Positions 8,845 through 52,309 of a stretch of DNA of 52,859 nucleotides are shown piece after piece. The stretch is from the IMG/VR virus record IMGVR_UViG_2909303794_000004. One strand, written 5' to 3'. The notes beneath the pieces are model-generated. The model had not been told where the DNA came from. It saw only the letters and a program-made list of their open reading frames with translations, and searched no databases. Source of the stretch: a virus (Duplodnaviria; Heunggongvirae; Uroviricota; Caudoviricetes). A program made the translations under genes and the position numbers. Positions within the stretch are counted from its first letter, which is position 1. Each line of letters starts with the position of its first letter.

Positions 8845-8898
8845 TGAACCGCCCCGGGAATCCTGGAGACTAAACTCCCTGAGAAAGAGGTAAACAGG

Positions 8899-14517: not shown

Positions 14518-14566
14518 ATCTCTTTATCCTGGTTGTCACAGAATAAGCCCGGTAAAATACGGGCTT

Positions 14567-16105
14567 ATGAACGACATCTCTTCTGACGACATCTTCCTGC
14601 TGAAACAGCGCCTGGCCGAACAGGAAGCGCTGATCCACGCCCTGCAGGAAAAGCTGAGCAACCGGGAGCGCGAAATAGACCATCTGCAGGCGCAGCTGGA
14701 TAAACTCCGCCGGATGAACTTCGGCAGTCGTTCCGAAAAAGTCTCCCGCCGTATCGCACAAATGGAAGCCGATCTGAACCGGCTTCAGAAAGAGAGCGAT
14801 ACGCTGACTGGTAGGGTGTATGACCCGGCAGTACAGCGTCCGTTGCATCAGACCCGCACCCGTAAGCCGTTCCCTGAATCACTACCCCGTGACGAAAAGC
14901 GACTGTTGCCTGCGGCGCCGTGCTGCCCGAACTGCGGCGGTTCACTGAGCTATCTGGGCGAGGATACCGCCGAACAGCTGGAGTTGATGCGTAGCGCCTT
15001 CCGGGTTATCCGGACGGTACGGGAAAAACATGCCTGTACTCAGTGCGATGCCATCGTGCAGGCACCTGCACCTTCGCGGCCCATCGAGCGGGGTATCGCC
15101 GGACCGGGGCTGCTGGCCCGCGTGCTGACCTCGAAGTATGCAGAGCACACCCCGCTGTATCGCCAGTCAGAAATATACGGCCGGCAAGGTGTGGAGCTGA
15201 GCCGTTCACTGCTGTCGGGCTGGGTGGATGCATGCTGCCGGCTGCTGTCTCCGCTGGAAGAGGCGCTTCATGGCTATGTCATGACTGACGGCAAACTCCA
15301 TGCCGATGATACCCCGGTCCAGGTACTGCTGCCGGGTAATAAGAAGACGAAGACCGGGCGGTTGTGGGCGTATGTTCGTGATGACCGCAATGCCGGGTCA
15401 GCGTTGGCACCTGCAGTGAGGTTCGCTTACAGCCCGGACAGAAAAGGCATCCATCCGCAGGCTCATCTTGCTTGCTTCAGCGGTGTGCTGCAAGCGGATG
15501 CGTACGCCGGGTTCAACGAGCTGTATCGCAATGGTGGGATAACGGAAGCTGCCTGCTGGGCTCATGCCCGCCGAAAGATCCACGATGTGCACGTCCGCAT
15601 CCCGTCAGCACTGACGGAAGAAGCCCTGGAGCAGATCGGTCAGTTGTACGCCATAGAGGCGGATATAAGGGGAATGCCGGCAGAGCAGCGGCTTGCTGAA
15701 CGTCAGCGAAAAACGAAACCGCTGTTGAAATCCCTGGAAAGCTGGTTGCGTGAAAAGATGAAGACCCTGTCGCGACACTCAGAGTTGGCGAAGGCGTTCG
15801 CGTACGCACTTAACCAGTGGCCGGCACTGACGTACTATGCGAACGATGGCTGGGTGGAAATCGACAACAACATCGCTGAAAATGCCCTGCGGGCGGTCAG
15901 TCTGGGTCGTAAAAACTTCCTGTTCTTCGGCTCTGACCATGGTGGTGAGCGGGGAGCGCTACTGTACAGCCTGATCGGGACGTGCAAACTGAATGACGTG
16001 GATCCAGAAAGCTACCTTCGCCATGTGCTTGGCGTCATAGCAGACTGGCCGGTCAACCGGGTCAGCGAACTGCTTCCGTGGCGCATAGCACTGCCAGCTG
16101 AATAA
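14567..16105 (+). CDS. IS66-family transposase (orf3)
   Basis: 512-aa ORF with N-terminal coiled-coil/leucine zipper and cysteine cluster (CPNCG…CTQCD), typical of IS66 transposases. Confidence 0.9.
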
Positions 16106-20917: not shown

Positions 20918-21217
20918 AAAAATTCCTTAATACTGATAACTTGGCGCACTATACACACGTTCCTGAAGAAAGCTATAGTTTTTTGATGGGGTTGAAGATG
21001 GCTGGATGTCTAAAATAAACATTGCTTCATATGTTCAACTATGCGTTAATGATTGCGTCGGTTTGAAGAACAGACGATATACGAAGTAGTTTACTAAAGC
21101 AGTTCTCATTTCAGGTGTTATTCACTTATTCCTTCTTTGAGTCTCTCCAATTAAGTACGAAGTCGTTTCTGTTATGCAAACCATTTATGCCGAAAGGCTC
21201 AAGTTAAGGAATGTAGA

Positions 21218-21433
21218 ATGTCAAATAAAATGACTGGTTTAGTAAAATGGTTTAACGCTGATAAAGGTTTCGGCTTTATTTCTCCTGTTGATGGTAGTAA
21301 AGATGTGTTTGTGCATTTTTCTGCGATTCAGAATGATAATTATCGAACCTTATTTGAAGGTCAAAAGGTTACCTTCTCTATAGAGAGTGGTGCTAAAGGT
21401 CCTGCAGCAGCAAATGTCATCATTACTGATTAA
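21218..21433 (+). CDS. cspB: cold-shock protein CspB (71 aa)
   Basis: [67 protein letters not shown]… near-identical to remembered CspB. Confidence 0.9.
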
Positions 21434-21714
21434 AATTCATCGCTCGTCTGTATACGATAACGAAGAAGGCTGATGCCTGAGTAGAGATACGGACAGAGTA
21501 GTGAATATTGGATCTCTTTAATAAAAAGTAAGGAGGTCCAATACATGAAACAATGGCTAGCATATTTGGCAAAATCTTAATCAGGAAAAGTATGCTAACC
21601 ATTGTGGTGAAGTGCAGGTTTGCTGCATGAATAGTTTTACAGCAGAAGCTAACTGCTGGCATGGCAAAACAAAGTGCGTAAGTGGATGACTCCCACAAAA
21701 AGCACCACAATCTC

Positions 21715-22718: not shown

Positions 22719-22832
22719 ACACAAAAATCAGATACGGCCTGTCGGCTGCCGTTCTGGCGCTGATTGGTGCTGGCGCATCTGCTCCTCAGATACTTGACCA
22801 GTTTCTGGACGAAAAAGAAGGTAACCACACAA
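22715..22832 (+). pseudogene. SAR-endolysin gene, 5' part (39 codons with N-terminal signal-arrest-release helix), interrupted by IS629-like insertion
   Basis: MNTKIRYGLSAAVLALIGAGASAPQILDQFLDEKEGNHT then the IS left end; frame resumes at 24146. Confidence 0.8.
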
Positions 22833-22874
22833 TGAACCGCCCCGGGTTTCCTGGAGAGTGTTTTATCTGTGAAC

Positions 22875-23765
22875 TCAGGCTGCCAGATCATCGTTTCCGA
22901 TGGAAGCATAATAAGCTTTTTCTGCTTCTGCCGGAGGAGTATGGCCCAGCCTTTCCAGCAATCGTCGATTGTTATACCAGTCCACCCACGTGAGTGTGGC
23001 CAGTTCCACTTCTGCACGGTTTTTCCAGCTCTTACGGTGTATTACCTCCGCTTTGTAAAGGCCATTGATGCTCTCCGCCATCGCGTTGTCATACGAGTCG
23101 CCTGTACTTCCTGTTGATGCCAGTAATCCGGCTTCCTTAAGCCGCTGTGTGTAGGCCAGCGATACATACTGAGAACCTTTATCACTGTGATGGACTGTGC
23201 CGGACGGTCGACGGGCCCATAACGCCTGCTCCAGAGCATCCAGCACAAATGTCGTTTCCATAGACGATGAGACCCGCCACCCCACGATGTATCCGGCAAA
23301 CACATCAATGATGAACGCCACATAGACGACCCCCTGCCATGTGCTGACGTAAGTAGAATCAGCCACCCACAACTGGTCAGGACGTTCTGCCACGAACTGA
23401 CGGTTTACGCGGTCGCCTGCGACAACGGCTTTCCGGCTGATGGTCGTACGGACCTTTTTACCACGGAGAACACCGGCAAGTCCCATAACCGCCATGAGAC
23501 GTGCCACAGTGCATCTGGCCACTCTGATACCTTCCCGTAACAACTGACGCCAGACTTTACGCACACCGTATACCTTGTGATTTTCATCGTATACGCGCTG
23601 TATCTCTTTCTTCAGCCAGTCATCGCGCTGCGCACGGGCACTGCGTTTATCCGGATGATGTCGCTGTTGCTGACAGTGGTAATACGTTGACGGGGCAATA
23701 TGCAGTTCGCTGCATAGCGGTCCGACCCCGTACTGCTCACGCAGCTTATCCAGCAGTGGCATCAT
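22875..23765 (-). CDS. IS3-family transposase OrfB
   Basis: 296-aa ORF homologous to 9225-10112. Confidence 0.9.
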
Positions 23766-24088
23766 TTTTTCCAGAGGCGGTCGAACTCCGCCTTCGCAAA
23801 ATAAGCGGAAGCCTGGCGAAGGATATCGTTACTGCGGCGCAGTTCACGATTTTCACGTTCCAGCTCTTTCAGACGCTGACGTTCAGCGGTGGTGAGCCCG
23901 CCATCACCGCCTCCGGTATCCCGCTCATGCTGGCGTACCCAGACACGCAGAGTCTCCGGTGTACAGCCAATCTTTGGGGCAATGGAACAAATTGCCGCCC
24001 ACTGTGAGTCATATTCGCCCTGACTTTCCAGAACCATACGAATCGCCCTCTGACGGACTTCGGGGGAAAAACGAGTATTTTTAGTCAT
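23762..24088 (-). CDS. IS3-family transposase OrfA
   Basis: 108-aa ORF, 2 substitutions relative to copy 1. Confidence 0.9.
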
Positions 24089-24145
24089 CCTGTTTACCTC
24101 TTTCTCAGGGAGTTTAGTCTCCAGGATTCCCGGGGCGGTTCACAA

Positions 24146-25055
<910 letters not shown>

Positions 25056-25416
25056 GGTAATATTAAATCGGAACATTTACATCGCGGAATGTAAAATTTG
25101 AATAAAAAGGACTCTTCCATGAGCCAAAATTCCTGAAATCTTAAGGGTAAGATAAAAGGTCTTAATCAGAATGACACGTTTTATTAATAAATAAAGCTAT
25201 TCTTTCATTGCTGTGTTTTTCTTTACAAAAGTAATCCTTGCTATGGGTGGTTAATCATGCGTTAATGGTGTTCTGGTTTGTTACAAATTTATCTGAAGCA
25301 GTCATTGTTATAATTTTATTATTTGTACCTCTTGAGATTTCCTTGTTGGTTTTTCTCTCTGATATTTTTTTCGGACCATTCTGCCCAAGGGCTAATTTCT
25401 TCAAAAGGTAATAATT

Positions 25417-25629
25417 ATGTCTAACAAAATGACTGGTTTAGTGAAATGGTTTAACCCTGAAAAAGGTTTTGGTTTCATCACGCCGAAAGATGGCAGCAAA
25501 GATGTGTTTGTCCATTTCTCAGCAATTCAGAGCAACGATTTCAAAACATTAACTGAGAATCAGGAAGTTGAATTTGGTATTGAGAACGGACCTAAAGGTC
25601 CTGCCGCTGTTCATGTAGTGGCGCTTTGA
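25417..25629 (+). CDS. cspI: cold-shock protein CspI (70 aa)
   Basis: [70 protein letters not shown] matches remembered CspI. Confidence 0.9.
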
Positions 25630-25835
25630 GGTAGACAATATTACAAACCATATTCACTTTAGATGCCCGTGTTGTCATGGTTCCCAGTATAGAACATCAT
25701 CTTTTGATGTTTCTGACATGAATCCTTTCGGGGCAAAATGTATCTTTTGTAAATCAATGATGATTACATTTGATAATATTTCACAATACTTAAATGCCAG
25801 CCGTCTGTCGTTGGATTTAAAAAAGTGAAAATGAA

Positions 25836-27960: not shown

Positions 27961-28130
27961 AGTTTTTGCATTTCCATGGCGGCGGCAGCATGTTTGGTAA
28001 TTTATTGATAATTAAAAGTTATTTCTCTTTTCACCTGTACAATATTTTTTTCTCCCTGTCATTAGACCAGTTTGCAATTAATTGAAATATATAAATAAAC
28101 ATGATTTTCACCTGCCAGATGGAGTTGCTT

Positions 28131-28658
28131 ATGTCAAATGTGAGCGGGATCGGTGATGCTTATTACTGGAGTGTTTTTAAAATCGCTGAGGCCTTTGGGC
28201 TTCACCGGGACACAGTAAAAAAACGGCTCCTCGCGGCCAACACTCCTGTGGCTGCGACTGTCAGGGGGAACCCCGTTTACGCCCTGCAGCATGTCGGGCC
28301 AGCCCTGTTTAGTGTGAAGCATGAGGCAGCAGACTCTGTTCATGATCCATCCCGTATGGAGCCGAAAGAGAGAAAGGACTGGTACCAGTCTGAAAATGAA
28401 AGGATCAAGCTGGAAAAGGAGCAGCGAAAACTCATCCCCGTTGATGAAGTAGTCATCGTCTATTCGTCCATGAGAAAGGCTGTCGTCCAGGTTCTGGAGA
28501 CAATTCCGGATGTTCTTGAACGCGATTGCGCCCTGACTCCTCAGGCCGTCGGCGTTGTACAGCAGGCCATTGATGACCTGCGATACACTCTTCAGGAAAA
28601 ATCCTACGAGGCTTGTGCTGCTGAATTAATTCCTGATGAGGAAGGAGAGAGTCTCTAG
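28131..28658 (+). CDS. terminase small subunit (Nu1/NohQ-like)
   Basis: 175-aa product with N-terminal HTH-like region; immediately upstream of the large subunit and downstream of cos. Confidence 0.8.
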   Translation: MSNVSGIGDAYYWSVFKIAEAFGLHRDTVKKRLLAANTPVAATVRGNPVYALQHVGPALFSVKHEAADSVHDPSRMEPKERKDWYQSENERIKLEKEQRKLIPVDEVVIVYSSMRKAVVQVLETIPDVLERDCALTPQAVGVVQQAIDDLRYTLQEKSYEACAAELIPDEEGESL

Positions 28659-28666
28659 GAGGAATA

Positions 28667-30766
28667 ATGGGTTTTTCATCAGCCCGAAATTTGGGAAGGG
28701 ACATATCGGCAGGATTTTCCCCACCACGTCGCATGCCGATTTCGGAGGCTGTTAAAAAATTCATGCGTGTTCCCAAGGGGGCTGGTAACTCGGTGCCATG
28801 GGATCCTGAACTGACACCCTACATCATTGAGCCCATGAACTGCCTGGCATCGCGTGAATACGATGCGGTGATTTTTGTTGGTCCTGCGCGAACAGGGAAG
28901 ACCATTGGTCTGATCGATGGATGGATTGTCTATACCATCGTTTGCGATCCTTCGGACATGCTCGTTGTGCAGATGACCGAAGATAAGGCCCGCGAGCATT
29001 CTAAAAAGCGCCTCGACAGAACGTTCAGAAGCAGTGCGTCGGTAAAGAAAAGAATGAGTCCACGTCGTAACGACAATAATGTCCATGATAAGACGTTCAG
29101 GGATGGCTCGTTCCTTAAAATTGGTTGGCCCTCGGTCAACATTATGTCGTCGTCGGATTACCGGTTTGTCGCCTTAACCGATTACGACCGTTTTCCGGAG
29201 AATATCGACAGCGAGGGTGATGGTTTCTCCCTGGCCTCAAAACGTACCACCACATTTATGTCCGCCGGGATGACTCTGGTGGAGAGCTCGCCGGGACGTG
29301 ACATCTGCGACAGCAAATGGCGACGTAAGTCGCCTCATGAAGCGCCACCGACGACTGGTATTCTTTCCCTTTACAATCGTGGTGACCGCCGCCGCTGGTA
29401 CTGGTCATGTCCGCACTGCGGTGAATATTTTCAGCCAGCCATGGATGCCATGACCGGCTACCGTAATGAACCGGATCCCTTTAAAGCCAGTGAGGCGGCG
29501 TATCTACTTTGCCCGCACTGCAGCGGCATTATCACTGCGGAGAAAAAGCGTGAGCTCAATAGTGCAGGAGTCTGGTTGCGTGAAGGTCAGGTCATTGATC
29601 GTAACGGCAACGTTTCCGGTGAACCGCGCCGCTCCCGTATCGCCAGTTTCTGGATGGAAGGGCCAGCTGCTGCGTATCAGACCTGGGCGCAACTGGTTTA
29701 CAAATTACTGACTGCAGAACAGGAGTATGAAGCGACAGGAAGCGAAGAAACACTCAGGGCGGTTATCAACACCGACTGGGGATTGCCTTATCTTCCTCGT
29801 GCCAGCATGGAGCAACGAAAAAGTGAACTGCTTGAGCAGCGGGCAGAGCCAGTTCCTTCCCGCAGTGTGCCGGATGGCGTTAATTTCCTTGTGGCGACAG
29901 TGGATGTGCAGGCGGGACGTCATCGCCGTTTTGTGGTTCAGGTAACGGGCTATGGCAGTCGTGGCGAACGCTGGATTATTGATCGTTACAACATCACGCA
30001 GTCATTGCGCAGTGACTGCGACGGGGAGAGCCAGCGAATTGATCCGGCCAGCTATCCGGAAGACTGGGATGTCCTGCTGACGGATGTTTTTCATAAAAGC
30101 TGGCCGCTGGCCTCCGACCCTTCTCAACAAATGCGACTGATGGCAATGGCGGTGGACTCCGGCGGTGAAGACGGGGTCACTGATAATGCCTATAAATTCT
30201 GGCGTCGTTGCCGTCGTGATGGCCTTGGCAAACGTATTTACCTGTTTAAGGGCGACAGCATCCGGCGCGCAAAACTGATCACCCGTACATTCCCTGATAA
30301 CACCGGACGAACGGGCCGACGGGCGCAGGCCGCAGGTGATGTGCCGCTCTGGCTTCTTCAGACGGATGCCCTGAAAGACCGGGTGAATAACGCGTTATGG
30401 CGTGACTCGCCAGGTCCCGGCTATGTGCATTTCCCTGACTGGCTGGGGAGCTGGTTTTACGACGAACTGACGTATGAAGAGCGGAGCAGTGACGGGAAAT
30501 GGAGTAAGCCGGGTCGCGGTGCCAACGAAGCTTTTGACCTGATGGTGTATGCCGAGGCTCTGGTCATTCTGCATGGATACGAAAAGATCCGCTGGCCGGA
30601 TGCACCGGAGTGGGCGAGCCGGGAAACCTGGCTGGAGTGTGTCCCGGACAGTACCGAACCGTCACCCTCACCGGAACCGGTATCCACGCCTGTTAAAAAA
30701 CAAAAACGGAAGAAAACAGTAACTGACGATGTTAACCCCTGGCTGACTTCCGGAGGATGGTTATGA
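28667..30766 (+). CDS. terminase large subunit (gpA-like)
   Basis: 699-aa ORF after AGGAGG; Walker-A-like GPARTGKT and C-terminal nuclease region; lambda gpA architecture. Confidence 0.9.
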   Translation: MGFSSARNLGRDISAGFSPPRRMPISEAVKKFMRVPKGAGNSVPWDPELTPYIIEPMNCLASREYDAVIFVGPARTGKTIGLIDGWIVYTIVCDPSDMLVVQMTEDKAREHSKKRLDRTFRSSASVKKRMSPRRNDNNVHDKTFRDGSFLKIGWPSVNIMSSSDYRFVALTDYDRFPENIDSEGDGFSLASKRTTTFMSAGMTLVESSPGRDICDSKWRRKSPHEAPPTTGILSLYNRGDRRRWYWSCPHCGEYFQPAMDAMTGYRNEPDPFKASEAAYLLCPHCSGIITAEKKRELNSAGVWLREGQVIDRNGNVSGEPRRSRIASFWMEGPAAAYQTWAQLVYKLLTAEQEYEATGSEETLRAVINTDWGLPYLPRASMEQRKSELLEQRAEPVPSRSVPDGVNFLVATVDVQAGRHRRFVVQVTGYGSRGERWIIDRYNITQSLRSDCDGESQRIDPASYPEDWDVLLTDVFHKSWPLASDPSQQMRLMAMAVDSGGEDGVTDNAYKFWRRCRRDGLGKRIYLFKGDSIRRAKLITRTFPDNTGRTGRRAQAAGDVPLWLLQTDALKDRVNNALWRDSPGPGYVHFPDWLGSWFYDELTYEERSSDGKWSKPGRGANEAFDLMVYAEALVILHGYEKIRWPDAPEWASRETWLECVPDSTEPSPSPEPVSTPVKKQKRKKTVTDDVNPWLTSGGWL

Positions 30767-30975
30767 ATCAGAATGATATTGAAGCCATGATTCAGCGTTA
30801 TACGGAAGCTGAAATGGCGGTGCTTGACGGAAAATCCGTCACTTTTAATGGTCAGCAGATGACCATGGAAAACTTATCTGAGATCCGGCAGGGGCGGCAG
30901 GAGTGGGAGCGCCGCCTTGCGGCTCTGATTACACGACGACGTGGGCATCCCGGGTACCGGCTGGCGAGGTTCTGA
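30763..30975 (+). CDS. head-tail joining protein gpW-like
   Basis: about 70-aa ORF; start overlaps the terminase stop (ATGA); C-terminus …RRRGHPGYRLARF resembles lambda W. Confidence 0.7.
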   Translation: MNQNDIEAMIQRYTEAEMAVLDGKSVTFNGQQMTMENLSEIRQGRQEWERRLAALITRRRGHPGYRLARF

Positions 30976-32483
30976 TGGCAATTCTTGATGATGTGATTGG
31001 CGTTTTTTCACCAGGATGGAAAGCGGCAAGGCTGCGTTCCCGTGCGGTGATCCAGGCTTATGAGGCCGTAAAAACGACGCGGACACACAAAGCCCGACGG
31101 GAGAACCGAACTGCCGACCAGTTAAGCCAGTACGGGGCCGTGTCGTTACGTGAGCAGGCCCGTTACCTTGATAACAACCACGATCTGGTCATTGGTGTAT
31201 TTGACAAGCTGGAAGAACGGGTGGTGGGGAAAAACGGGATTATTGTCGAGCCACATCCGGTATTACGCAATGGGGCCATTGCCCGTGATCTGGCAGCGGA
31301 GATACGTACCCGATGGAGTGAATGGTCTGTCAGTCCGGAGGTCACCGGGCAGTTTACCCGTCCGATGCTGGAACGTCTGATGCTGCGTACCTGGCTGCGC
31401 GATGGTGAGGTGTTTGCCCAGATGGTTTCCGGGCGCATAAACAGCCTGACGCCTTCTGCCGGTGTTCATTTCTGGCTGGAGGCGCTCGAGCCAGACTTTA
31501 TTCCCATGACCAGTGATGAGAGCAACAGGCTGAATCAGGGCGTGTTTGTTGATGACTGGGGGCGTCCCGAAAAATATCTGGTGTATAAAAGCCGTCCCGT
31601 ATCCGGACGGCAGATGGAAACCAAAGAAGTTGATGCAGAGCGAATGCTGCATCTTAAATTTGTTCGCCGTCTGCACCAGATGCGCGGGACGTCTTTATTG
31701 TCCGGTGTGCTGATCCGCCTCAGTGCCCTGAAAGAATATGAAGATTCTGAGCTGACTGCAGCAAGGATCGCCGCTGCTCTGGGGATGTACATCCGGAAAG
31801 GCGACGGGCAGAGCTATGAACCGGATGGTAATGGCAGAAAGGAGAATGAACGTGAGCTTACCATTCAGCCGGGCATTATTTACGACGATCTGAAACCCGG
31901 CGAAGAAATCGGAATGGTGAAGTCGGATCGCCCCAATCCTAACCTTGAAACTTTTCGTAATGGTCAGTTGCGTGCCGTGGCGGCGGGCAGTCGTCTGAGT
32001 TTTTCCAGTACAGCGCGCAACTATAACGGCACTTACAGCGCCCAGCGTCAGGAGCTGGTTGAATCTACTGATGGCTACCTGATCCTGCAGGACTGGTTTA
32101 TTGGTGCCGTCACCCGCCCGATGTATCGTGCATGGCTGAAACAGGCTGTGGCATCCGGTGTTATCAGGCTACCCCGCGATCTTGACCGTTCTTCACTGTA
32201 TACCGCGGTGTATTCCGGACCAGTGATGCCGTGGATTGACCCTGTTAAGGAGGCTGAGGCCTGGAAAATCCAGATTCGTGGTGGAGCGGCGACAGAATCA
32301 GACTGGGTACGTGCTGGTGGTCGTAATCCGGATGATGTCAAACGTCGGCGCAAGGCCGAAATTGATGAAAACCGCAAGCTGGATCTGGTATTTGATACCG
32401 ATCCGGCCAGTGATAAAGGAGGCAGTAGTGCCGCAACGAAACGACAGGAGCCGCAGCACACCGACGACCAGTCCGAAGAATAA
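30975..32483 (+). CDS. portal protein (gpB-like)
   Basis: about 500-aa ORF; start overlaps the W stop (TGATG); canonical position. Confidence 0.85.
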   Translation: MAILDDVIGVFSPGWKAARLRSRAVIQAYEAVKTTRTHKARRENRTADQLSQYGAVSLREQARYLDNNHDLVIGVFDKLEERVVGKNGIIVEPHPVLRNGAIARDLAAEIRTRWSEWSVSPEVTGQFTRPMLERLMLRTWLRDGEVFAQMVSGRINSLTPSAGVHFWLEALEPDFIPMTSDESNRLNQGVFVDDWGRPEKYLVYKSRPVSGRQMETKEVDAERMLHLKFVRRLHQMRGTSLLSGVLIRLSALKEYEDSELTAARIAAALGMYIRKGDGQSYEPDGNGRKENERELTIQPGIIYDDLKPGEEIGMVKSDRPNPNLETFRNGQLRAVAAGSRLSFSSTARNYNGTYSAQRQELVESTDGYLILQDWFIGAVTRPMYRAWLKQAVASGVIRLPRDLDRSSLYTAVYSGPVMPWIDPVKEAEAWKIQIRGGAATESDWVRAGGRNPDDVKRRRKAEIDENRKLDLVFDTDPASDKGGSSAATKRQEPQHTDDQSEE

Positions 32484-32496
32484 TTCCTGGTTCAGG

Positions 32497-34455
32497 ATGC
32501 AGGCTGGTCACCAGAGTGACGCGGATATTTATATTTATGACGAGATTGGTTTCTGGGGTGTTACAGCGAAGCAGTTTATCAGTGATCTGAATGCACTGGG
32601 CGATATCACCCACATTAATCTCCATATTAATTCACCGGGTGGCGATGTCTTTGAAGGCATCGCCATTTTTAATGCGCTGAAAACACATGGTGCGTCCATT
32701 ACCGTTTATGTCGACGGTGTGGCGGCGTCAATGGCGTCGGTCATTGCGATGGTAGGAAACCCGGTCATTATGCCGGAAAACACCTTCATGATGATTCATA
32801 AACCATTTGGCTTTACGGGCGGTGATGCGGAGGACATGCGCACCTATGCCGACCTGCTCGATAAAGTTGAGGCGGTTCTGTTACCCGCTTATGCACAGAA
32901 AACCGGGAAAACCACCGATGAAATTGCTGCCATGCTGGCGGATGAGACCTGGATGTCCGGTGCCGAATGTCTGGCACATGGATTTGCTGATCAGGTAACG
33001 CCAGCCGTTAAGGCAATGGCATGTATTCAGTCAAAACGTACAGAGGAATTTAAAAAGATGCCGGAATCCATTCGAAACATGATTACTCCGCCACGCAACA
33101 GTGCTCCACGCGTACAGGATAATGAACCTGAAGCCTCCCGGACGCCAGTGCAGGCAGCAGCACCCGTGGTGGATGAAAACAGCATCCGTGCGCAGATACT
33201 GGCAGAGCAAAAAGCGCGTGTAAACGGTATTAATGATCTGTTTGCCATGTTTGGCGGGCGTTATCAGACGCTGCAGGCTCAGTGTCTTGCCGATCCTGAA
33301 TGTTCGCTGGAGCAGGCCCGTGAAAAGCTGTTGAACGAGATGGGGCGCGAGTCCACGCCATCCAATAAAAATACCCCAGCTCATATTTATGCCGGTAACG
33401 GTAATTTTGTGGGGGACGGGATTCGCCAGGCGCTGATGGCGCGTGCCGGATTTGAAAAAACCGAACGTGATAATGTTTACAACGGGATGACCCTGCGTGA
33501 ATATGCCCGTATGTCACTAACTGAGCGGGGTATTGGGGTTTCCGGTTATAACCCGATGCAGATGGTCGGTGCGGCGTTCACACACAGTACGTCTGACTTC
33601 GGTAATATTCTGCTGGATGTTGCGAACAAAGCCATTCTGCAGGGCTGGGAAGATGCCCCTGAAACCTATGAACAGTGGACGCGGAAAGGTCAGTTGTCTG
33701 ATTTTAAAATTGCCCATCGTGTGGGTATGGGTGGCTTCAGTGCTCTGCGTCAGGTGCGTGAAGGGGCGGAATATAAATACGTCACCACCGGAGATAAACA
33801 GGCCACTATTGCACTGGCGACCTATGGCGAGCTGTTCAGTATCACCCGTCAGGCCATTATCAATGATGATCTGAATATGCTGACCGATGTCCCGATGAAA
33901 CTGGGCCGTGCGGCGAAATCCACTATTGCCGATCTGGTTTATGCCATTCTGACGTCTAACCCGAAAATCTCCACAGATAATGTAAGTCTGTTCGATAAAG
34001 CGAAACATGCAAACGTACTGGAGAGCGCAGCAATGGACGTGGCATCGCTGGATAAAGCCCGCCAGTTGATGCGCGTTCAGAAAGAGGGGGAGCGTCATCT
34101 GAATATTCGTCCTGCGTTCGTACTGGTACCGACGGCGATGGAGTCTGTTGCTAACCAGGTCATTCGCTCCTCAAGTGTCAAGGGGGCTGACATTAACGCC
34201 GGTATTATTAACCCGGTGAAAGATTTTGCGACCGTTATTGCAGAGCCTCGTCTTGATGATAACAGCCAGACCACCTTCTACCTGGCTGCGTCAAAAGGCT
34301 CCGATACGATTGAAGTGGCTTATCTCAACGGTGTGGATACGCCATATATTGATCAGATGGAGGGCTTCAGTGTGGATGGCGTGACAACGAAAGTGCGTAT
34401 TGACGCCGGTGTCGCGCCAGTTGATCACCGCGGTCTGGTGAAATGTACGGCGTAA
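32497..34455 (+). CDS. fused prohead protease (ClpP-like serine protease) - scaffold-like linker - major capsid protein
   Basis: one uninterrupted frame; N-terminal ClpP-type motifs (INSPGGDVFEG…GVAASMASVIA), then a helical linker, then a capsid-like C-terminal domain of about 300 aa; start 32497 is the first ATG after the portal stop. Confidence 0.75.
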   Translation: MQAGHQSDADIYIYDEIGFWGVTAKQFISDLNALGDITHINLHINSPGGDVFEGIAIFNALKTHGASITVYVDGVAASMASVIAMVGNPVIMPENTFMMIHKPFGFTGGDAEDMRTYADLLDKVEAVLLPAYAQKTGKTTDEIAAMLADETWMSGAECLAHGFADQVTPAVKAMACIQSKRTEEFKKMPESIRNMITPPRNSAPRVQDNEPEASRTPVQAAAPVVDENSIRAQILAEQKARVNGINDLFAMFGGRYQTLQAQCLADPECSLEQAREKLLNEMGRESTPSNKNTPAHIYAGNGNFVGDGIRQALMARAGFEKTERDNVYNGMTLREYARMSLTERGIGVSGYNPMQMVGAAFTHSTSDFGNILLDVANKAILQGWEDAPETYEQWTRKGQLSDFKIAHRVGMGGFSALRQVREGAEYKYVTTGDKQATIALATYGELFSITRQAIINDDLNMLTDVPMKLGRAAKSTIADLVYAILTSNPKISTDNVSLFDKAKHANVLESAAMDVASLDKARQLMRVQKEGERHLNIRPAFVLVPTAMESVANQVIRSSSVKGADINAGIINPVKDFATVIAEPRLDDNSQTTFYLAASKGSDTIEVAYLNGVDTPYIDQMEGFSVDGVTTKVRIDAGVAPVDHRGLVKCTA

Positions 34456-34477
34456 ACGTCGCAGACAACAACTCTGA

Positions 34478-34499
34478 TGGCCCGTAAGGGCTTTTTTTG
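34478..34499 (+). terminator. intrinsic terminator after the capsid gene
   Basis: GGCCCGTAAGGGCTTTTTTT. Confidence 0.6.
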
Positions 34500-34541
34500 T
34501 ACCTGAAATCAGCCCCTGAACGGGGCTGTGCGGAGACAGTT

Positions 34542-34865
34542 ATGGCAAAGAATTTTGTAGAAGAAGGAAAAACGGTGGCGATTGTTGCCAGTGCAGCCAT
34601 CAGCAGCGGAGATCTGGTGCAGGTGGGCGATGTTTTTGCGGTGGCGCTGACCGATATTCCACAGGGTGAAACAGGCGACGGCATGACCGAAGGTGTGTTT
34701 ATGCTGCCTAAGCTGAAAACGGATGACATGAAAACGGGTAAGAAGGTTTATCTGAAGTCCGGAAAAGTTCAGCTGACTAACAGCGGCTCTGATCCGCTGG
34801 TCGGGGTTGTCTGGGCAGATGCCGGAACCAGTGCAGAAGAAGTGCCGGTAAAACTCAATGTCTGA
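34542..34865 (+). CDS. head-associated protein (107 aa), function unknown
   Basis: internal start MAKNFVEEGKT… after GGAGA; between the capsid and tail-completion genes. Confidence 0.6.
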   Translation: MAKNFVEEGKTVAIVASAAISSGDLVQVGDVFAVALTDIPQGETGDGMTEGVFMLPKLKTDDMKTGKKVYLKSGKVQLTNSGSDPLVGVVWADAGTSAEEVPVKLNV

Positions 34866-43097: not shown

Positions 43098-46000
43098 ATG
43101 GGTAAAGGAAGCAGTAAGGGGCATACCCCGCGCGAAGCGAAGGACAACCTGAAGTCCACGCAGTTGCTGAGTGTGATCGATGCCATCAGCGAAGGGCCGG
43201 TTGAAGGTCCGGTGGATGGATTAAAAAGCGTGCTGCTGAACAGTACGCCGGTGCTGGACACTGAGGGGAATACCAACATCTCCGGTGTCACGGTGGTGTT
43301 CCGTGCCGGTGAGCAGGAGCAGACACCGCCGGAGGGGTTTGAATCCTCCGGCTCCGAGACGGTGCTGGGTACGGAAGTGAAATATGACACGCCGATCACC
43401 CGCACCATTACGTCTGCAAACATCGACCGTCTGCGCTTTACCTTCGGTGTACAGGCACTGGTGGAAACCACCTCAAAGGGTGACAGGAATCCGTCGGAAG
43501 TCCGTCTGCTGGTTCAGATACAACGTAACGGTGGCTGGGTGACGGAAAAAGACATCACCATTAAGGGCAAAACCACCTCGCAGTATCTGGCCTCGGTGGT
43601 GGTGGATAACCTGCCGCCGCGCCCGTTTAATATCCGGATGCGCAGGATGACGCCGGACAGCACCACAGACCAGCTGCAGAACAAAACGCTCTGGTCGTCA
43701 TACACCGAAATTATCGATGTGAAACAGTGCTACCCGAACACGGCACTGGTCGGCGTGCAGGTGGATTCGGAGCAGTTCGGCAGCCAGCAGGTGAGCCGTA
43801 ATTATCATCTGCGCGGGCGCATTCTGCAGGTGCCGTCGAACTATAACCCGCAGACGCGGCAATACAGCGGTATCTGGGACGGAACGTTTAAGCCAGCATA
43901 CAGCAACAACATGGCCTGGTGTCTGTGGGATATGCTGACCCATCCGCGCTACGGCATGGGGAAACGTCTTGGTGCGGCGGATGTGGACAAATGGGCGCTG
44001 TATGTCATCGGCCAGCATTGCGATCAGTCGGTGCCGGACGGTTTTGGCGGCACGGAGCCGCGCATCACCTGTAATGCGTACCTGACCACACAGCGCAAGG
44101 CGTGGGATGTGCTCAGTGATTTCTGCTCTGCGATGCGCTGTATGCCGGTATGGAACGGGCAGACGCTGACGTTCGTGCAGGACCGACCGTCGGATAAGGT
44201 GTGGACCTATAACCGCAGTAATGTGGTGATGCCGGATGATGGTGCGCCGTTCCGCTACAGCTTCAGCGCCCTGAAGGACCGCCATAATGCCGTTGAGGTG
44301 AACTGGATTGACCCGAATAACGGCTGGGAGACGGCGACAGAGCTTGTGGAGGACACGCAGGCCATTGCCCGTTACGGTCGTAACGTCACGAAGATGGATG
44401 CTTTTGGCTGTACCAGCCGGGGGCAGGCACACCGCGCCGGGCTGTGGCTGATTAAAACAGAACTGCTGGAAACGCAGACCGTGGATTTCAGCGTCGGCGC
44501 AGAAGGGCTTCGCCATGTACCGGGCGATGTCATTGAAATCTGCGATGATGACTATGCCGGTATCCGCACCGGCGGGCGCGTGCTGGCGGTAAACAGCCAG
44601 ACCCGGACGCTGACGCTCGACCGTGAAATCACGCTGCCATCCTCCGGTACCACGCTGATAAGCCTGGTTGACGGAAGTGGCAATCCGGTCAGCGTGGAGG
44701 TTCAGTCCGTCACCGACGGCGTGAAGGTGAAAGTGAGCCGTGTTCCTGACGGCGTTGCTGAATACAGCGTGTGGGGGCTGAAGCTGCCGACGCTGCGCCA
44801 GCGCCTGTTCCGCTGCGTGAGTATCCGTGAGAACGACGACGGCACGTATGCCATCACCGCCGTGCAGCATGTACCGGAAAAAGAGGCCATCGTGGATAAC
44901 GGGGCGCACTTTGACGGCGACCAGAGCGGCACGGTGAATGGTGTCACGCCGCCAGCGGTGCAGCACCTGACTGCCGAAGTCACCGCAGACAGCGGGGAAT
45001 ATCAGGTGCTGGCGCGCTGGGACACGCCGAAGGTGGTGAAGGGGGTGAGCTTTATGCTTCGCCTGACCGTGGCAGCGGATGACGGCAGTGAGCGGCTGGT
45101 CAGCACGGCCCGGACGACGGAAACCACATACCGCTTCACGCAACTGGCGCTGGGACGGTACACGCTGACAGTCCGGGCGGTAAATGCGTGGGGACAGCAG
45201 GGCGATCCGGCGTCGGTATCGTTCAGGATTGCCGCACCGGTAGCACCGTCGCGGATTGAGCTGACGCCGGGCTATTTTCAGATAACTGCCACGCCGCATC
45301 TTGCGGTTTATGATCCGACGGTACAGTTTGAGTTCTGGTTCTCGGAAACGCGGATTACCGATATCAGGCAGGTTGAAACCACAGCCCGCTACCTTGGCGC
45401 GGGGCTGTACTGGATAGCCGCCAGTATCAATATCAAACCGGGCCATGATTATTACTTTTATATCCGCAGTGTGAACACCGTTGGCAAATCGGCATTCGTG
45501 GAGGCCGTCGGTCGGGCGAGCGATGATGCGGAAGGTTACCTGGATTTTTTCAAAGGCAAGATAACCGAATCCCATCTCGGTAAAGAGCTGCTGGAAAAAG
45601 TTGATCTGACGGAGGATAACGCCAGCAGACTGGATGAGTTTTCGAAAGAGTGGAAGGACGCTAACGATAAATGGAATGCCATGTGGGGCGTCAAAATTGA
45701 GCAGACCAAAGACGGCAAACATTATGTCGCGGGTATTGGCCTCAGCATGGAGGACACGGAGGAAGGCAAGCTGAGCCAGTTTCTGATTGCCGCTAACCGT
45801 ATCGCGTTTATTGACCCGGCAAACGGGAATGAAACGCCGATGTTTGTGGCGCAGGGCAACCAGATATTCATGAACGACGTGTTCCTGAAGCGCCTGACAG
45901 CCCCCACCATTACCAGCGGTGGCAGTCCTCCGGTATTTTCCCTGACATCAGACGGAAAGCTGACCGCTAAAAATGCGGATATCAGTGGCAGTGTGAATGC

Positions 46001-46395
46001 GAACTCAGGAACGCTCAACAATGTCACGATTAACCAGAACTGTACGATTAAGGGCATGCTGGAGGCGACCCAGGTCAGAGGGGATTTCGTTAAAGCTGTA
46101 TCAAAAGCCTTCCCGAAAAAAGTCGGTACGTGGGGTAACACGGAAACACCAAACGGGACGGTTACAGTCACCATCAGCGATGATCATAACTTTGACCGCC
46201 AGATTATTATTCCGCCCATTATTTTTAACGGTATAGCGTATGACGATCCGGGGAGCGGAAATAACCCAGGAGGCACGCGATACACGGGTTATGGTTTTGA
46301 AGTTCGCAAAAACGGCGTATTAATCGCATCCAGAGAAACTAAAGGGGCCATTCCCGGTAGTTACAGTGCAGTTATTGATATGCCTAGTGGTGGTG
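43098..46395 (+). pseudogene. J: tail tip/host-specificity protein gpJ-like, 5' part (1099 codons), interrupted by IS1
   Basis: lambda J-like N-terminus ([29 protein letters not shown]…); frame runs into the IS1 left end and meets a stop inside it at 46398-46400. Confidence 0.85.
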
Positions 46396-46450
46396 GGTGA
46401 TGCTGCCAACTTACTGATTTAGTGTATGATGGTGTTTTTGAGGTGCTCCA

Positions 46451-46726
46451 GTGGCTTCTGTTTCTATCAGCTGTCCCTCCTGTTCAGCTACTGACGGGGT
46501 GGTGCGTAACGGCAAAAGCACCGCCGGACATCAGCGCTATCTCTGCTCTCACTGCCGTAAAACATGGCAACTGCAGTTCACTTACACCGCTTCTCAACCC
46601 GGTACGCACCAGAAAATCATTGATATGGCCATGAATGGCGTTGGATGCCGGGCAACAGCCCGCATTATGGGCGTTGGCCTCAACACGATTTTACGTCACT
46701 TAAAAAACTCAGGCCGCAGTCGGTAA
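46451..46726 (+). CDS. insA: IS1 InsA
   Basis: [43 protein letters not shown]… matches remembered InsA. Confidence 0.95.
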
Positions 46727-47148
46727 CCTCGCGCATACAGCCGGGCAGTGACGTCATCGTCTGCGCGGAAATGGACGAACAGTGGGGCTATGTCGGGGCT
46801 AAATCGTGCCAGCGCTGGCTGTTTTACGCGTATGACAGGCTCCGGAAGACGGTTGTTGCGCACGTATTCGGTGAACGCACGATGGCGACGCTGGGGCGTC
46901 TTATGAGCCTGCTGTCACCCTTTGACGTGGTGATATGGATGACGGATGGCTGGCCGCTGTATGAATCCCGCCTGAAGGGAAAGCTGCACGTAATCAGCAA
47001 GCGATATACGCAGCGAATTGAGCGGCATAACCTGAATCTGAGGCAGCACCTGGCACGGCTGGGACGGAAGTCGCTGTCGTTCTCAAAATCGGTGGAGCTG
47101 CATGACAAAGTCATCGGGCATTATCTGAACATAAAACACTATCAATAA
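46645..47148 (+). CDS. insB: IS1 InsB frame (expressed as InsAB' by -1 frameshift)
   Basis: 167-aa ORF in the -1 frame overlapping insA. Confidence 0.9.
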
Positions 47149-47358: not shown

Positions 47359-47958
47359 ATGCGTAAAGTTTGTGCAGCCATTTTGTCCGCAGCCATTTGT
47401 CTGGCCGTATCCGGTGCGCCTGCATGGGCGTCTGAACATCAGTCCACGCTGAGCGCGGGGTATCTTCATGCCCGGACCAACGTTCCCGGCAGTGATGATC
47501 TGAACGGGATTAACGTGAAATATCGTTATGAGTTTACGGATACGCTGGGGCTGGTGACGTCATTCAGCTATGCAGGAGACAAGAATCGCCAGCTGACCCG
47601 TTACAGCGATACCCGCTGGCATGAAGATTCCGTGCGTAACCGCTGGTTCAGCGTGATGGCGGGGCCGTCTGTGCGCGTGAATGAATGGTTCAGCGCGTAT
47701 GCGATGGCGGGTGTGGCTTACAGCCGTGTGTCGACTTTTTCCGGGGATTATATCCGCGTAACTGACAATAAGGGGAAAACGCACGATGTGCTGACCGGAA
47801 GTGATGACGGTCGCCACAGCAACACGTCTCTGGCGTGGGGGACTGGCGTGCAGTTTAACCCGACCGAGTCCGTGGCCATTGATGTCGCTTATGAAGGTTC
47901 CGGCAGTGGCGACTGGCGCACTGACGGTTTCATCGTGGGTGTCGGTTATAAGTTCTGA
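47359..47958 (+). CDS. lom: Lom outer-membrane protein (Ail/Lom family)
   Basis: 199-aa ORF with signal peptide and beta-barrel-like alternating pattern ending in a C-terminal aromatic residue (…GVGYKF); lambda lom position after J. Confidence 0.85.
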   Translation: MRKVCAAILSAAICLAVSGAPAWASEHQSTLSAGYLHARTNVPGSDDLNGINVKYRYEFTDTLGLVTSFSYAGDKNRQLTRYSDTRWHEDSVRNRWFSVMAGPSVRVNEWFSAYAMAGVAYSRVSTFSGDYIRVTDNKGKTHDVLTGSDDGRHSNTSLAWGTGVQFNPTESVAIDVAYEGSGSGDWRTDGFIVGVGYKF

Positions 47959-48016: not shown

Positions 48017-51000
48017 GTGAATATGGCAGTAAAGATTTCAGGTGTACTGAAAGACGGCACAGGAAAACCGGTACAGAACTGCACAATCCAGCTGAAAGCA
48101 AAACGTAACAGCACCACGGTGGTGGTGAACACGCTGGCCTCAGAAAATCCGGATGAGGCCGGGCGTTACAGCATGGACGTTGAGTACGGTCAGTATAGCG
48201 TTATTCTGTTGGTGGAAGGATTCCCGCCGTCACATGCCGGGACCATCACCGTGTATGAAGATTCCCGACCCGGTACGCTGAATGATTTTCTCGGTGCCAT
48301 GACGGAGGATGATGCCCGTCCGGAGGCTCTGCGCCGTTTTGAACTGATGGTGGAAGAGGTGGCGCGTAACGCGTCCGCGGTGGCACAGAACACGGCAGCC
48401 GCGAAGAAGTCAGCCAGTGATGCCGGCACATCTGCCAGTGAGGCGGCAACCCATGCGACTGATGCTGCAGGCTCAGCGCGTGCAGCCAGCACGTCAGCCG
48501 GACAGGCCGCGACGTCGGCTCAGGAGGCGTCTTCCAGCGCAGGAACAGCATCAACAAAGGCCACAGAAGCATCAAAAAGTGCTGCCGCTGCAGAGTCCTC
48601 AAAAAGCGCGGCGGCCACCAGTGCCGGTGCCGCGAAAACGTCAGAAACGAATGCTGCAGCGTCACAAAAATCAGCAGCCACTTCTGCATCCACTGCGACG
48701 ACGAAAGCGTCAGAAGCCGCCACTTCAGCCAGAGATGCGGCGGCCTCCAAAGAGGCGGCAAAATCATCAGAAACGAACGCCTCCACAAGCGCCAGCAGTG
48801 CAGCCTCCTCGGCAACGGCGGCAGGAAATTCCGTGAAGGCGGCAAAAACGTCCGAGACGAATGCTAAGTCTTCTGAAACGGCAGCGGAACAGAGCGCCTC
48901 AGCTGCGGCAGACTCTGAGACAGCAGCTGCATCATCGGCCCGTGAGGCGTCCATTAAGGCAGAGGAGGCAGCAGTCAGTGCCACCGCCGCCGGAAAATCG
49001 GCAGAAAGCGCCGCATCATCCGCTTCAACAGCCACAACGAAGGCTGGCGAAGCCACTGAACAGGCCAGCGCAGCAGCGAGGTCTGCTTCCGCAGCGAAGA
49101 CATCCGAAACGAACGCGAAAGCGTCGGAAACCAGCGCAGAATCCTCAAAAACGGCTGCCGCATCGTCCGCCAGTTCGGCGGCGTCATCGGCATCATCTGC
49201 GTCTGCTTCAAAAGATGAGGCGACCAGACAGGCGTCAGCAGCGAAGGGTAGCGCCACGACGGCATCCACGAAGGCGACAGAGGCAGCTGGCAGTGCGACG
49301 GCAGCAGCTCAGAGCAAAAGTACGGCGGAATCTGCAGCAACGCGCGCTGAGACAGCGGCAAAACGGGCAGAGGATATTGCATCCGCCGTGGCGCTTGAGG
49401 ATGCGAGCACGACGAAAAAGGGGATAGTACAGCTCAGCAGTGCGACCAACAGCACTTCCGAGTCACTGGCGGCAACGCCAAAAGCCGTTAAGGCCGCGTA
49501 TGACCTGGCTAACGGGAAATACACCGCACAGGATGCAACGACAGCACAGAAAGGGATAATCCAGCTAAGCAGCGCGACCAACAGCACGTCTGAAACGCTG
49601 GCGGCAACGCCAAAGGCAGTAAAAGCAGCCAATGACAATGCTGAGAAACGTCTGCAGAAAGATCAGAACGGTGCGGATATCCCTGGCAAAGACACCTTTA
49701 CGAAAAATATTGGTGCCTGCCGTGCCTTCGGTGGGTCAGTAAGCACAACAACAGGAAACTGGACGACTGCACAGTTTATCGAGTGGCTGGATTCTCAGGG
49801 AGCATTTAACCATCCATACTGGATGTGCAAGGGTTCCTGGTCTTATGGCAATAATAAAATCATTACTGATACTGGCTGCGGTAATATTCATCTCGCCGGA
49901 GCTGTCATTGAAGTAATGGGGATAAAGTCAGCGATGACGATCCGCATTACCACACCGACCACCTCCACTGGTGGTGGAACAACTAACGCCCAGTTTACCT
50001 ATATTAATCACGGAACAGATTATTCACCTGGCTGGCGAAGGGACTATAACTCCAGAAATAAGCCAACGGCATCAGAGATCGGGGCGTTACCGTCAGGTGG
50101 AACAGCAGTATCATCAGTTAATCTGTCTTCAAAAGGTCGGGTAACCGCGCTGACAGACAATACGCAGGGGGCAACAGGTCTTGAGTTATACGAGGTGTAT
50201 AACAACGGATATCCAACAGCGTATGGAAATATCATTCACCTGAAAGGGATGACAGCCGTTGGCGAAGGTGAGTTACTCATCGGCTGGAGTGGTACAAGCG
50301 GTGCTCATGCTCCGGCATTTATTCGTTCACGACGGGATACGACCGACGCAAACTGGTCGCCGTGGGCGCAGCTTTACACCTCGGCTCATCCTCCTGCAGA
50401 GTTTTATCCAGTCGGTGCACCAATCCCGTGGCCATCAGATACCGTTCCGTCTGGTTATGTCCTGATGCAGGGGCAGACTTTTGACAAATCTGCTTACCCG
50501 AAACTTGCAGCCGCTTATCCGTCAGGCGTGATCCCTGATATGCGTGGCTGGACGATTAAGGGCAAGCCCGCCAGTGATCGAGCCGTATTGTCTCAGGAAC
50601 AGGACGGCATTAAATCACACACCCACAGCGCCAGCGTATCCAGTACGGATTTGGGGACGAAAACCACATCGTCGTTTGATTACGGCACTAAATCCACGAA
50701 TAACACTGGTGCGCATACCCATAGTGTTAGCGGTACGGCTGCTTCAGCCGGTGCACATACCCATTCGATGACATTTGTTTCAGGTGGTTCCAGTGGTGCT
50801 CCGGGAAGTGGATCACCTGATTATTCTAAATACAGTGTTAACACTTCTTCTGCAGGCGCTCATACGCACTCTGTATCGGGTACTGCTGCAAGCGCAGGTG
50901 CACACGCACATACTGTCGGTATTGGTGCTCATACGCACTCCGTTGCGATTGGTTCACATGGACATACCATCACCGTTAACGCTGCTGGTAACGCGGAAAA

Positions 51001-51046
51001 CACCGTCAAAAACATCGCATTTAACTATATTGTGAGGCTTGCATAA
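48017..51046 (+). CDS. stf: side tail fibre protein Stf (1009 aa)
   Basis: N-terminus [26 protein letters not shown]… resembles lambda Stf; long Ala/Ser/Thr-rich repeats; C-terminal HxH-rich motifs ([17 protein letters not shown]…). Confidence 0.9.
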
Positions 51047-51621
51047 TGGCATTCAGAATGAGTGAACAACCACGGACCATAAAAATTTATAATCTGCTGG
51101 CCGGAACTAATGAATTTATTGGTGAAGGTGACGCATATATTCCGCCTCATACAGGTCTGCCAGCAAACAGTATCGATATTGCACCGCCAGATATTCCGGC
51201 AGGCTTCGTGGCTGTTTTCAACAGTGATGAGGCATCGTGGCATCTCGTTGAAGATCATCGGGGTAAAACGGTTTATGACGTGGCTTCCGGCGACGCGTTA
51301 TTTATTTCTGAACTCGGTCCGTTACCGGAAAATGTTACCTGGTTATCGCCGGGAGGGGAATATCAGAAGTGGAACGGCACAGCCTGGGTGAAGGATACGG
51401 AAGCAGAAAAACTGTTCCGGATCCGGGAGGCGGAAGAAACAAAAAACAGCCTGATGCAGGTAGCCAGTGAGCATATTGCGCCGCTTCAGGATGCTGCAGA
51501 TCTGGAAATTGCAACGGAGGAAGAAATCTCGTTGCTGGAAGCATGGAAAAAGTATCGGGTATTGCTGAACCGTGTTGATACGTCAACTGCACAGGATATT
51601 GAATGGCCAGCACTGCCGTAG
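51046..51621 (+). CDS. tfa: tail fibre assembly protein Tfa (191 aa)
   Basis: start overlaps the stf stop; size and position as lambda tfa. Confidence 0.85.
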
Positions 51622-51718: not shown

Positions 51719-52309
51719 TTATATGTCAGGTGTCTGAAGTTTTGCTTTGGCTCTTAAAATGGTTTGCCGCGAGGTTTTGAATTCCCGGGCAATGGCACTT
51801 ATACTTACACCTGACTTAATTCGTTCGAATACCACCTGTTTCTGTTCTTCATTTAACACAGGTGGTCGACCAAAACGTTTCCCTGCGCCCCGGGCTCTTA
51901 CTATCCCGGAATGAGTGCGTTCAAGTAAAAGGTCTCGTTCAAATTCAGCGACTGCTGAAATTACTTGCATCATCATTTTTCCTGTTGGACTGGTCAGGTC
52001 AATGCCCCCCAATGCTAAGCAATGCACTCTGATACCTGTTTCGGTCAGTTGTTCCACTGTTTTCCTGATATCCATTGCATTACAACCAAGGCGATCCAGT
52101 TTTGTCACAATCAATTGATCACCACATTTCAGGCGAGCAAGCAACCGGTTAAAACCAGGACGCTCACTGGTTGCTGCTGAGCCGCTAATGTGTTCTTCGA
52201 TTATTTGCTGAGGTTTGATTTTAAAACCTGCACTTTCGATTTCCCGGCGTTGATTTTCGGTGGTCTGATCCAGCGTTGATATCCGACAGTAAGCAAAAAT
52301 TCGAGACAT
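51719..52309 (-). CDS. pin: serine recombinase, DNA invertase (Pin/Hin/Gin family, 196 aa)
   Basis: [20 protein letters not shown]… with catalytic-Ser context (CRISTLDQ) and C-terminal HTH; K-12 pinQ position. Confidence 0.9.

Follow-up and report, generated by a model that had tools for sequence, protein, structure and literature searches.

A tripartite protease, scaffold and capsid gene in a lambdoid prophage and a candidate internal start of translation within it

If the protease, the scaffold and the major capsid protein of a phage head are encoded in one uninterrupted gene, does every subunit of the shell carry a protease into the procapsid, or are some of the subunits made without it? 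The question is raised by a locus in the IMG/VR virus record IMGVR_UViG_2909303794_000004 (Caudoviricetes), a stretch of 52,859 nucleotides (nt), called the window below, which is a lambdoid prophage. The original prediction, made from the letters of this DNA, was that positions 32497-34455 join a ClpP-type serine protease, a helical linker and a capsid-like domain in a single frame of 652 codons, and that the protease would be delivered in cis on every capsid subunit, or on a subset of them if an internal start exists. To judge by the sequence comparisons set out here, the gene is a Gifsy-2-type "tripartite" head gene of a lambdoid prophage, with protease, scaffold and capsid in one polypeptide, and the explanation that we find fairly probable as a whole, nested start included, is that this fusion tethers the protease to the shell while a second product of 465 amino acids (aa) would be initiated inside the gene.

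The gene, its domains and its family

The translation of 32497-34455 on the + strand bears out an uninterrupted frame of 652 aa with zero stops, and the same frame is already open from 32236. The beginning of the gene is less simple. At ATG 32497 the duplex with the anti-Shine-Dalgarno (anti-SD) sequence is merely -2.2 kcal/mol, with nearly no Shine-Dalgarno (SD) complementarity, whereas at GTG 32428 an AAGGAGG lies 5 nt upstream and its duplex of -11.6 kcal/mol is the strongest among the in-frame starts of the open reading frame (ORF). A start at this GTG, which overlaps the last 56 nt of the portal gene in a different frame, gives a protein of 675 aa, the length shared with the closest homologues, several of which are NCBI records; in an Stx2 phage the homologous GTG is the annotated start, with the same AAGGAGG before it, and in the annotation of phage mEp460 the start is the equivalent of ATG 32497. 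The frame that had been predicted is open, then, and it is its 5′ end that needs revision, as the real extent of the gene is probably 32428-34455, that is, 69 nt longer at that end. Public records use three start codons for the same gene, giving 652, 675 and 707 aa, and name it variously "head-tail preconnector protease C", "Nu3", "protease/scaffold protein", "Major head protein", "Clp protease ClpP" and "head maturation protease".

The residue numbers given here refer throughout to the 652-aa version (ATG 32497). In this numbering Pfam finds CLP_protease at aa 23-168 (E 4.5e-36) and Phage_capsid_4 at aa 354-649 (E 1.2e-54), together with a weak match to a Mu-like gpT. The AlphaFold2 model of the fusion protein, built on an alignment of 78 diverse homologues from which the Gifsy-2 translation was left out, reaches a mean predicted local distance difference test (pLDDT) score of 90.3, and presents a compact alpha/beta ClpP-like domain (aa 1-170), short helices at 180-196, disorder at 201-222 (pLDDT <50), the helices 227-250, 257-265, 271-284, 304-316 and 333-343 with a dip in pLDDT at aa 281-300, and finally a large C-terminal alpha/beta domain that extends to aa 652 and includes a 29-residue helix at 459-487. 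The helical linker of the original prediction is thus recovered in the model, and its capsid-like C-terminal domain is recognized by the Pfam match, with a capsid fold that structure prediction does not refute. Furthermore, no other capsid or scaffold gene was found in the head module, so that the shell protein can only be the C-terminal domain.

The protease assignment also holds, because Ser78 and His101 are invariant across the 78 diverse homologues, and Glu150, which sits at the position of the catalytic Asp of ClpP, is Glu or Asp in 74 of them. It could be supposed that this domain, instead of serving head maturation, is a ClpP subunit of the cellular type that forms an ATP-dependent protease together with ClpX or ClpA, given that the nearest PDB sequence and fold are those of ClpP (in the PDB sequence search the best 60 of 107 matches are all ClpP). 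However, the cellular ClpP models of NCBIfam that were matched, mostly equivalogs, all remain far below their cutoffs (TIGR00493, for example, with 59.7 against 308.6), while the phage model NF045542, "head maturation protease, ClpP-related", is passed with 215.8 bits against a cutoff of 120; moreover, the domain forms one polypeptide with a capsid protein, and its gene lies between those of the portal and the decoration protein. We consider the cellular alternative very improbable, and these profiles, with its position, mark the N-terminal domain as a head-maturation protease related to ClpP, not a cellular ClpP. The SppA model is likewise below its cutoff (22 bits against 155).

The whole protein belongs to a catalogued family. 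The NCBIfam model NF045540 ([quoted passage not shown]) is matched with 986.8 bits against a cutoff of 475, in an alignment of aa 9-651 with profile positions 2-651 out of 652, and PHROG 133 also matches the full length of the fusion; the model of a second fusion type, NF045541, stays below its cutoff (402.3 bits against 525) and covers only aa 200-649. At the DNA level the gene shares 98-99.4% identity with phages mEp460, cdtI, Ayreon, Tritos and others, and 2,124 of 5,426 complete Escherichia coli genomes have a match (2,014 at a coverage of at least 80%), where PGAP gives it the same name as NF045540. The fused form appears in 77 phage records, which include plaque-forming isolates as well as Stx2-converting, Providencia and Pseudomonas phages. 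Full-length identity to the Gifsy-2 protein is 70%, and for the neighboring decoration protein it is 61%. Among 1.84 billion cluster representatives searched, 6,772 match at E <=1e-30, and the best 150 of these are mostly full-length fusions of 640-750 aa with 36-60% identity. In view of NF045540 and PHROG 133, the Gifsy-2 study, the MD8 group and the actinobacteriophage fusions, the fusion architecture is in itself already known, catalogued and ordinary for E. coli prophages.

These data also bear on the suspicion that the fusion could be an artefact or a decayed pseudogene, in which a sequencing error or a frameshift had joined separate genes in a defective prophage rich in insertion sequences (IS). 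The prophage does contain several insertion sequences, and in one relative (L087) a frameshift splits the gene; but the same architecture is found in those 2,014 E. coli genomes and 77 phage records, it is described by curated full-length hidden Markov models, and of 80 diverse proteobacterial loci with 36-99% identity, 79 keep the frame open over the entire stretch examined, without the stop or frameshift between domains that such an origin would suppose. The comparative data have thus already refuted this explanation, to which we attach practically no probability.

A candidate internal start between protease and scaffold

The original prediction had proposed to search for internal starts near 33300-33400, but the candidates there, TTG 33331 and ATG 33340, lack an SD (duplexes of -2.9 and -0.1 kcal/mol), and the sequence evidence leans instead to ATG 33058. 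In a scan of all in-frame starts this codon (Met188, in "EEFKKMPESIR") is located directly past the protease domain, with an A/U-rich stretch upstream, and both the ATG and an AGGA/GGAG core are kept in Gifsy-2, the Stx2 phage, Providencia PSTCR8lys and Pseudomonas CF79a, down to 56% protein identity.

The wider family was considered at two levels: that of the protein, in the alignment of 78 diverse fusions, and that of the DNA, in 79 fusion genes, where a linker start was counted when the anti-SD duplex before an ATG was at least as strong as -5 kcal/mol. In the alignment the linker is the least conserved part (0.17-0.29 per column), and within it there is one column where 59 of 74 sequences share a Met and 7 have Val, usually with Glu or Lys-Glu 3-5 residues upstream; the sequences without this Met mostly have another one close by, and the clade of the window uses Met188 instead. 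In the DNA, a linker ATG with such a duplex occurs in 72 of the 79 genes, compared with 12.7% of the other 1,652 in-frame ATGs and with 19% of size-matched control blocks (Mann-Whitney p ~2e-33). The residues encoded by the SD core vary from one relative to another (EE, ED, QE, KE, KD, GD, KG, TE, HG), while at the nucleotide level AGGA/GGAG is retained, mostly 8-10 nt upstream of the ATG, and the codon that forms the core (codon -5) has G as its third base in 44 of 44 sequences, against 43% for the Glu, Gln and Lys codons gene-wide. As for the folding of the messenger, a 50-nt segment at the site ranks in the lowest fifth of the mRNA for structure in 89% of the genes, and here in the lowest 1%.

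A similar arrangement is seen outside the ClpP-type family, in gp10 of Rhodobacter phage RcHotPocket (NF045541, with a non-ClpP protease), where an AAGGAA followed by an ATG (Met214) stands exactly at the junction of protease and scaffold (L088 2276-2299), and the possible nested start may therefore extend to other families of protease. In the literature examined, which did not cover the original Gifsy-2 study, no description of a second, internal start in tripartite head genes was found.

Several observations weigh against a functional start at this place. The 8-10 nt between the SD core and the ATG exceed the optimum; in the clade of the window the SD-like bases double as codons of a conserved Glu-Glu/Asp-Phe motif; the low structure of the mRNA accompanies a lower GC content (-0.12), as expected of a linker rich in Lys, Glu and Asn; about 7 of the 79 genes have no convincing linker start; and the sequences are related, so that the counts do not represent independent events. 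In addition, an SD-like motif followed by an ATG also occurs within the protease domain, at Met114 and at Met153, where it derives from conserved amino-acid motifs, which means that such signals can arise without function. These two positions were themselves rejected as internal starts, being inside the folded protease with motifs that the conserved residues explain, and Met153 being conserved in only 26 of 78 sequences.

Two sequences that resembled natural split genes were likewise discarded: a stand-alone scaffold-capsid protein beginning with "MP" (P0224) is cut by the end of its contig and its frame is open upstream, and another (P0166, from L087) is a fused gene with a 1-nt frameshift, in a prophage that looks decayed.

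The alternative that has to be weighed most closely is that the same tripartite gene yields the full-length product only, so that each of the ~415 subunits carries a protease and autoproteolysis occurs in cis or from neighbor to neighbor, the linker Met and its purine-rich codons being relics of the start of an ancestral separate gene, or the outcome of an amino-acid preference. This would agree with the fact that the ribosome-binding site at 32428 is by far the strongest, with the conserved residues that account for the motifs at Met114 and Met153, with the variability of the Met188 column in the wider family (Val, Ala, Pro, Ile), and with the result that no sigma-70-like internal promoter was found in 32200-34700. 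On the other hand, descent alone is hard to square with a Met present in about 80% of the sequences at one column when the other columns of the linker are 17-29% conserved, and the SD core is kept at the nucleotide level despite the change of residue, down to the synonymous G in all 44 sequences. There is also a question of space: according to a rough volume estimate of our own, ~415 copies of the ~35-kDa internal part would fill ~60% of the cavity of a T=7 procapsid, far above known scaffold loads, while the shorter product would fill ~25%, close to the load of the HK97 delta domain. All in all, the production of the full-length protein alone is a possibility of some weight, although to our mind a distinctly lesser one.

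The nested start at 33058, for its part, is somewhat more probably functional than not, to judge from the conservation described. With slightly less assurance, and leaning only a little beyond an even judgement, the proposal can be widened to the Gifsy-2-like tripartite genes across the Proteobacteria, which would be nested two-product genes, with an abundant protease-less subunit and a full-length protein that acts as a minority tether for the protease. In such a two-product gene, the ratio of enzyme to shell subunit may be set by translation.

If the nested start is accepted, the following course of events could be proposed, in which the capsid geometry and the role of the decoration protein are borrowed from the 70%-identical Gifsy-2, and the products, their stoichiometry, the cleavage site and the order of steps are what we infer. 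Late transcription would pass through the head operon, and initiation at GTG 32428 would give a protease-scaffold-capsid protein of 675 aa and 74 kDa, while a second initiation at ATG 33058 would give a scaffold-capsid protein of 465 aa and 51 kDa. Only a fraction of the subunits would then bear the enzyme, as in lambda C/Nu3, Mu I/Z and herpesvirus UL26/UL26.5. Both products would co-assemble on the portal by means of their capsid and scaffold parts, with the N-terminal parts turned inward, in such a way that the C-terminal HK97-fold domain would form the icosahedral shell and the helical middle part, by its predicted function, would be a scaffold within the shell comparable to the HK97 delta domain. 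Since the protease (Ser78/His101/Glu150) is fused to the capsid protein, it would enter the procapsid by covalent attachment, and once there it would remove all the parts N-terminal to the capsid domain, with a cut probably between aa 285 and 350, for which the flexible aa 281-300 are a tentative candidate region. The fragments would then exit, the DNA would be packaged, the shell would expand, and the product of 34542-34865 would bind to it as a cementing decoration protein.

The head module and the rest of the prophage

The coordinates of the gene, of its parts and of the head module that surrounds it are collected in Table 1. The tail genes come after the decoration gene, and the layout of the module matches those of mEp460 and Gifsy-2; at the place equivalent to the hairpin that follows the capsid-fusion stop, the mEp460 annotation has a rho-independent terminator.

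Table 1. Positions in the window of the capsid-fusion gene, its predicted parts and the neighboring head genes
Feature	Coordinates	Strand	Basis or remark
Small terminase	28101-28658		head module
Large terminase	28667-30766		head module
Head-tail adaptor	30757-30975		head module
Portal protein gene	30975-32483	+	PHROG 21, E 5e-139; corresponds to mEp460 gp04
Shine-Dalgarno AAGGAGG	32416-32422	+	5 nt upstream of GTG 32428; duplex -11.6 kcal/mol
Full-length gene, ClpP-like prohead protease / scaffold / major capsid protein fusion, 675 aa (probable)	32428-34455	+	NF045540, PHROG 133, homologue lengths
ClpP-fold serine protease domain (aa 1-170)	32497-33006	+	Pfam, model, catalytic residues
Catalytic codon Ser78	32728-32730	+	invariant in 78 homologues
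Catalytic codon His101	32797-32799	+	invariant in 78 homologues
Catalytic codon Glu150	32944-32946	+	position of the ClpP Asp; Glu or Asp in 74 of 78
Poorly conserved, mostly disordered linker (aa 171-226)	33007-33174	+	pLDDT <50 at 201-222; column conservation 0.17-0.29
Candidate internal Shine-Dalgarno GAGGAA, encodes Glu-Glu	33043-33048	+	9 nt before ATG 33058; duplex -6.0 kcal/mol
Candidate nested ORF from ATG 33058 (Met188), putative 465-aa protease-less scaffold-capsid protein	33058-34455	+	conserved ATG, unstructured site
Predicted helical scaffold-like (delta-domain-like) segment (aa 227-343)	33175-33525	+	AlphaFold2 helices
HK97-fold major capsid domain (~aa 353-652)	33553-34452	+	capsid-domain match
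Terminator-like GC hairpin then T run, 3′ of the capsid-fusion stop	34479-34502	+	pattern scan; hairpin at 34479-34492
Head decoration (cement) protein gene	34542-34865	+	PHROG 122, E 1.8e-47; Pfam Phage_cement_2; 61% to Gifsy-2 counterpart

Two genes contain long antisense ORFs, one within the capsid gene (33517-34098, - strand, 193 aa) and the other within the J gene (43698-45722, - strand, 674 aa), and both can most probably be put down to codon and GC bias.

Other features of the prophage concern its mobile elements and regulatory RNAs. Two IS3-family elements of 1,315 nt each, 95% identical and inverted with respect to one another, are found at 8845-10159 and 22828-24142, each with an ALIL frameshift pseudoknot recognized by Rfam (9180-9296 on the + strand and 23691-23807 on the - strand). 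The pair brackets 12.7 kb of the early/late regulatory region and could constitute a composite transposon or an invertible segment. Within it lie a sok antitoxin RNA (11590-11761), so that a hok/sok module is present, a transposase with helix-turn-helix and rve domains (11856-13148), and an IS66-family element with its transposase at 14567-16105 and small upstream ORFs from 13772; the interval 14001-16000, with 58% GC, is the highest in the window. Two 5′ leaders of the cspA thermoregulator type (RF01766; 158.8 and 114.2 bits), at 21057-21449 and 25272-25656, form a direct repeat of 73% identity, 4.2 kb apart, that flanks one of the IS3 copies, and they imply two cold-shock-protein-like genes in the late region. 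In the early-left region, a DicF antisense small RNA (sRNA) at 4775-4826 on the - strand (RF00039, 76.7 bits) lies near a recE-like ORF (1659-4130) and the integrase (20-1315).

Towards the other end, a J-like tail-tip ORF (43098-46400, 1,100 aa) precedes an IS1 transposase ORF (46645-47148), beyond which lies lom (47359-47958), and the prophage may be defective in this host-range region. A resolvase-family serine invertase (51719-52309, - strand) adjoins the side-tail-fibre and tail-fibre-assembly genes (48017-51621), a placement that suggests tail-fibre switching of the Mu Gin or P1 Cin type, and the Rfam sRNA model "IS009" has a match at 51389-51587 (221 bits) inside the tfa ORF.

Comparison with known systems

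The tripartite capsid gene of Gifsy-2 was reportedly the object of a cryo-electron microscopy study by Effantin et al. in 2010 (Virology 402:355), the abstract of which is said to describe a T=7 capsid modelled by HK97 gp5 plus lambda gpD. The Gifsy-2 gene (NC_010393 22471-24561) has the same order of ClpP-like protease, central segment of ~200 residues and major capsid protein, in the same place, between the portal gene and a homologous decoration gene, and the Met-Pro of the linker with a GAGGAG upstream is also there; the two differ in the N-terminal extension and in a short insertion that Gifsy-2 has near aa 314-326, and are otherwise orthologues. With mEp460, cdtI, Ayreon and Tritos the order of the module is the same and there is no material difference, although the annotations differ in name and start codon.

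Beyond the enterobacterial phages, gp5 of the Pseudomonas phages MD8, F10 and CF79a provides the protease, the scaffold and the capsid protein from a single gene (PMC8508860). The CF79a protein is 56.5% identical to the one described here and keeps the linker ATG and an AGGAG motif, but it comes from another host and has a longer N-terminal extension (693 aa). Fusions of protease, scaffold and capsid are also typical of actinobacteriophages with small genomes (PMC7302621). In RcHotPocket gp10 (NF045541) the scaffold-capsid part is homologous, with a partial match to NF045540 of 330 bits, but the protease is of a different family. The fusion is widespread, being found in ~40% of the complete E. 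coli genomes, and what is gained in practice is consistency of annotation. The internal start, if true, would explain how these phages avoid a protease on each of ~415 subunits, and would carry over to a gene with three functions the nesting of protease and scaffold seen in lambda, Mu and the herpesviruses, a tidy but incremental addition for specialists in capsid assembly.

With lambda C, Nu3 and E, the order of portal, protease, scaffold and capsid is shared, as is the use of a trimeric decoration protein. The contrast drawn in the original prediction is nevertheless correct by established knowledge, since E is a separate capsid gene in lambda, whereas here there is no stop between the domains and no E-like gene in the module. 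The protease of lambda gpC belongs to the SppA/S49 branch. As regards the nesting, C and Nu3 of lambda give an in-frame product with a common C-terminus, and the same logic would apply here if the internal start is real.

With HK97 gp4 and gp5, finally, the likeness lies in a delta-like scaffold fused N-terminally to a capsid protein of the HK97 fold and removed, here by prediction, by a co-assembled protease. In HK97, however, this protease is encoded by a separate gene and belongs to another family, while here it is contained in the capsid ORF; and the HK97 shell is a covalent chainmail that has no decoration protein, whereas in this prophage a decoration gene follows that of the capsid.

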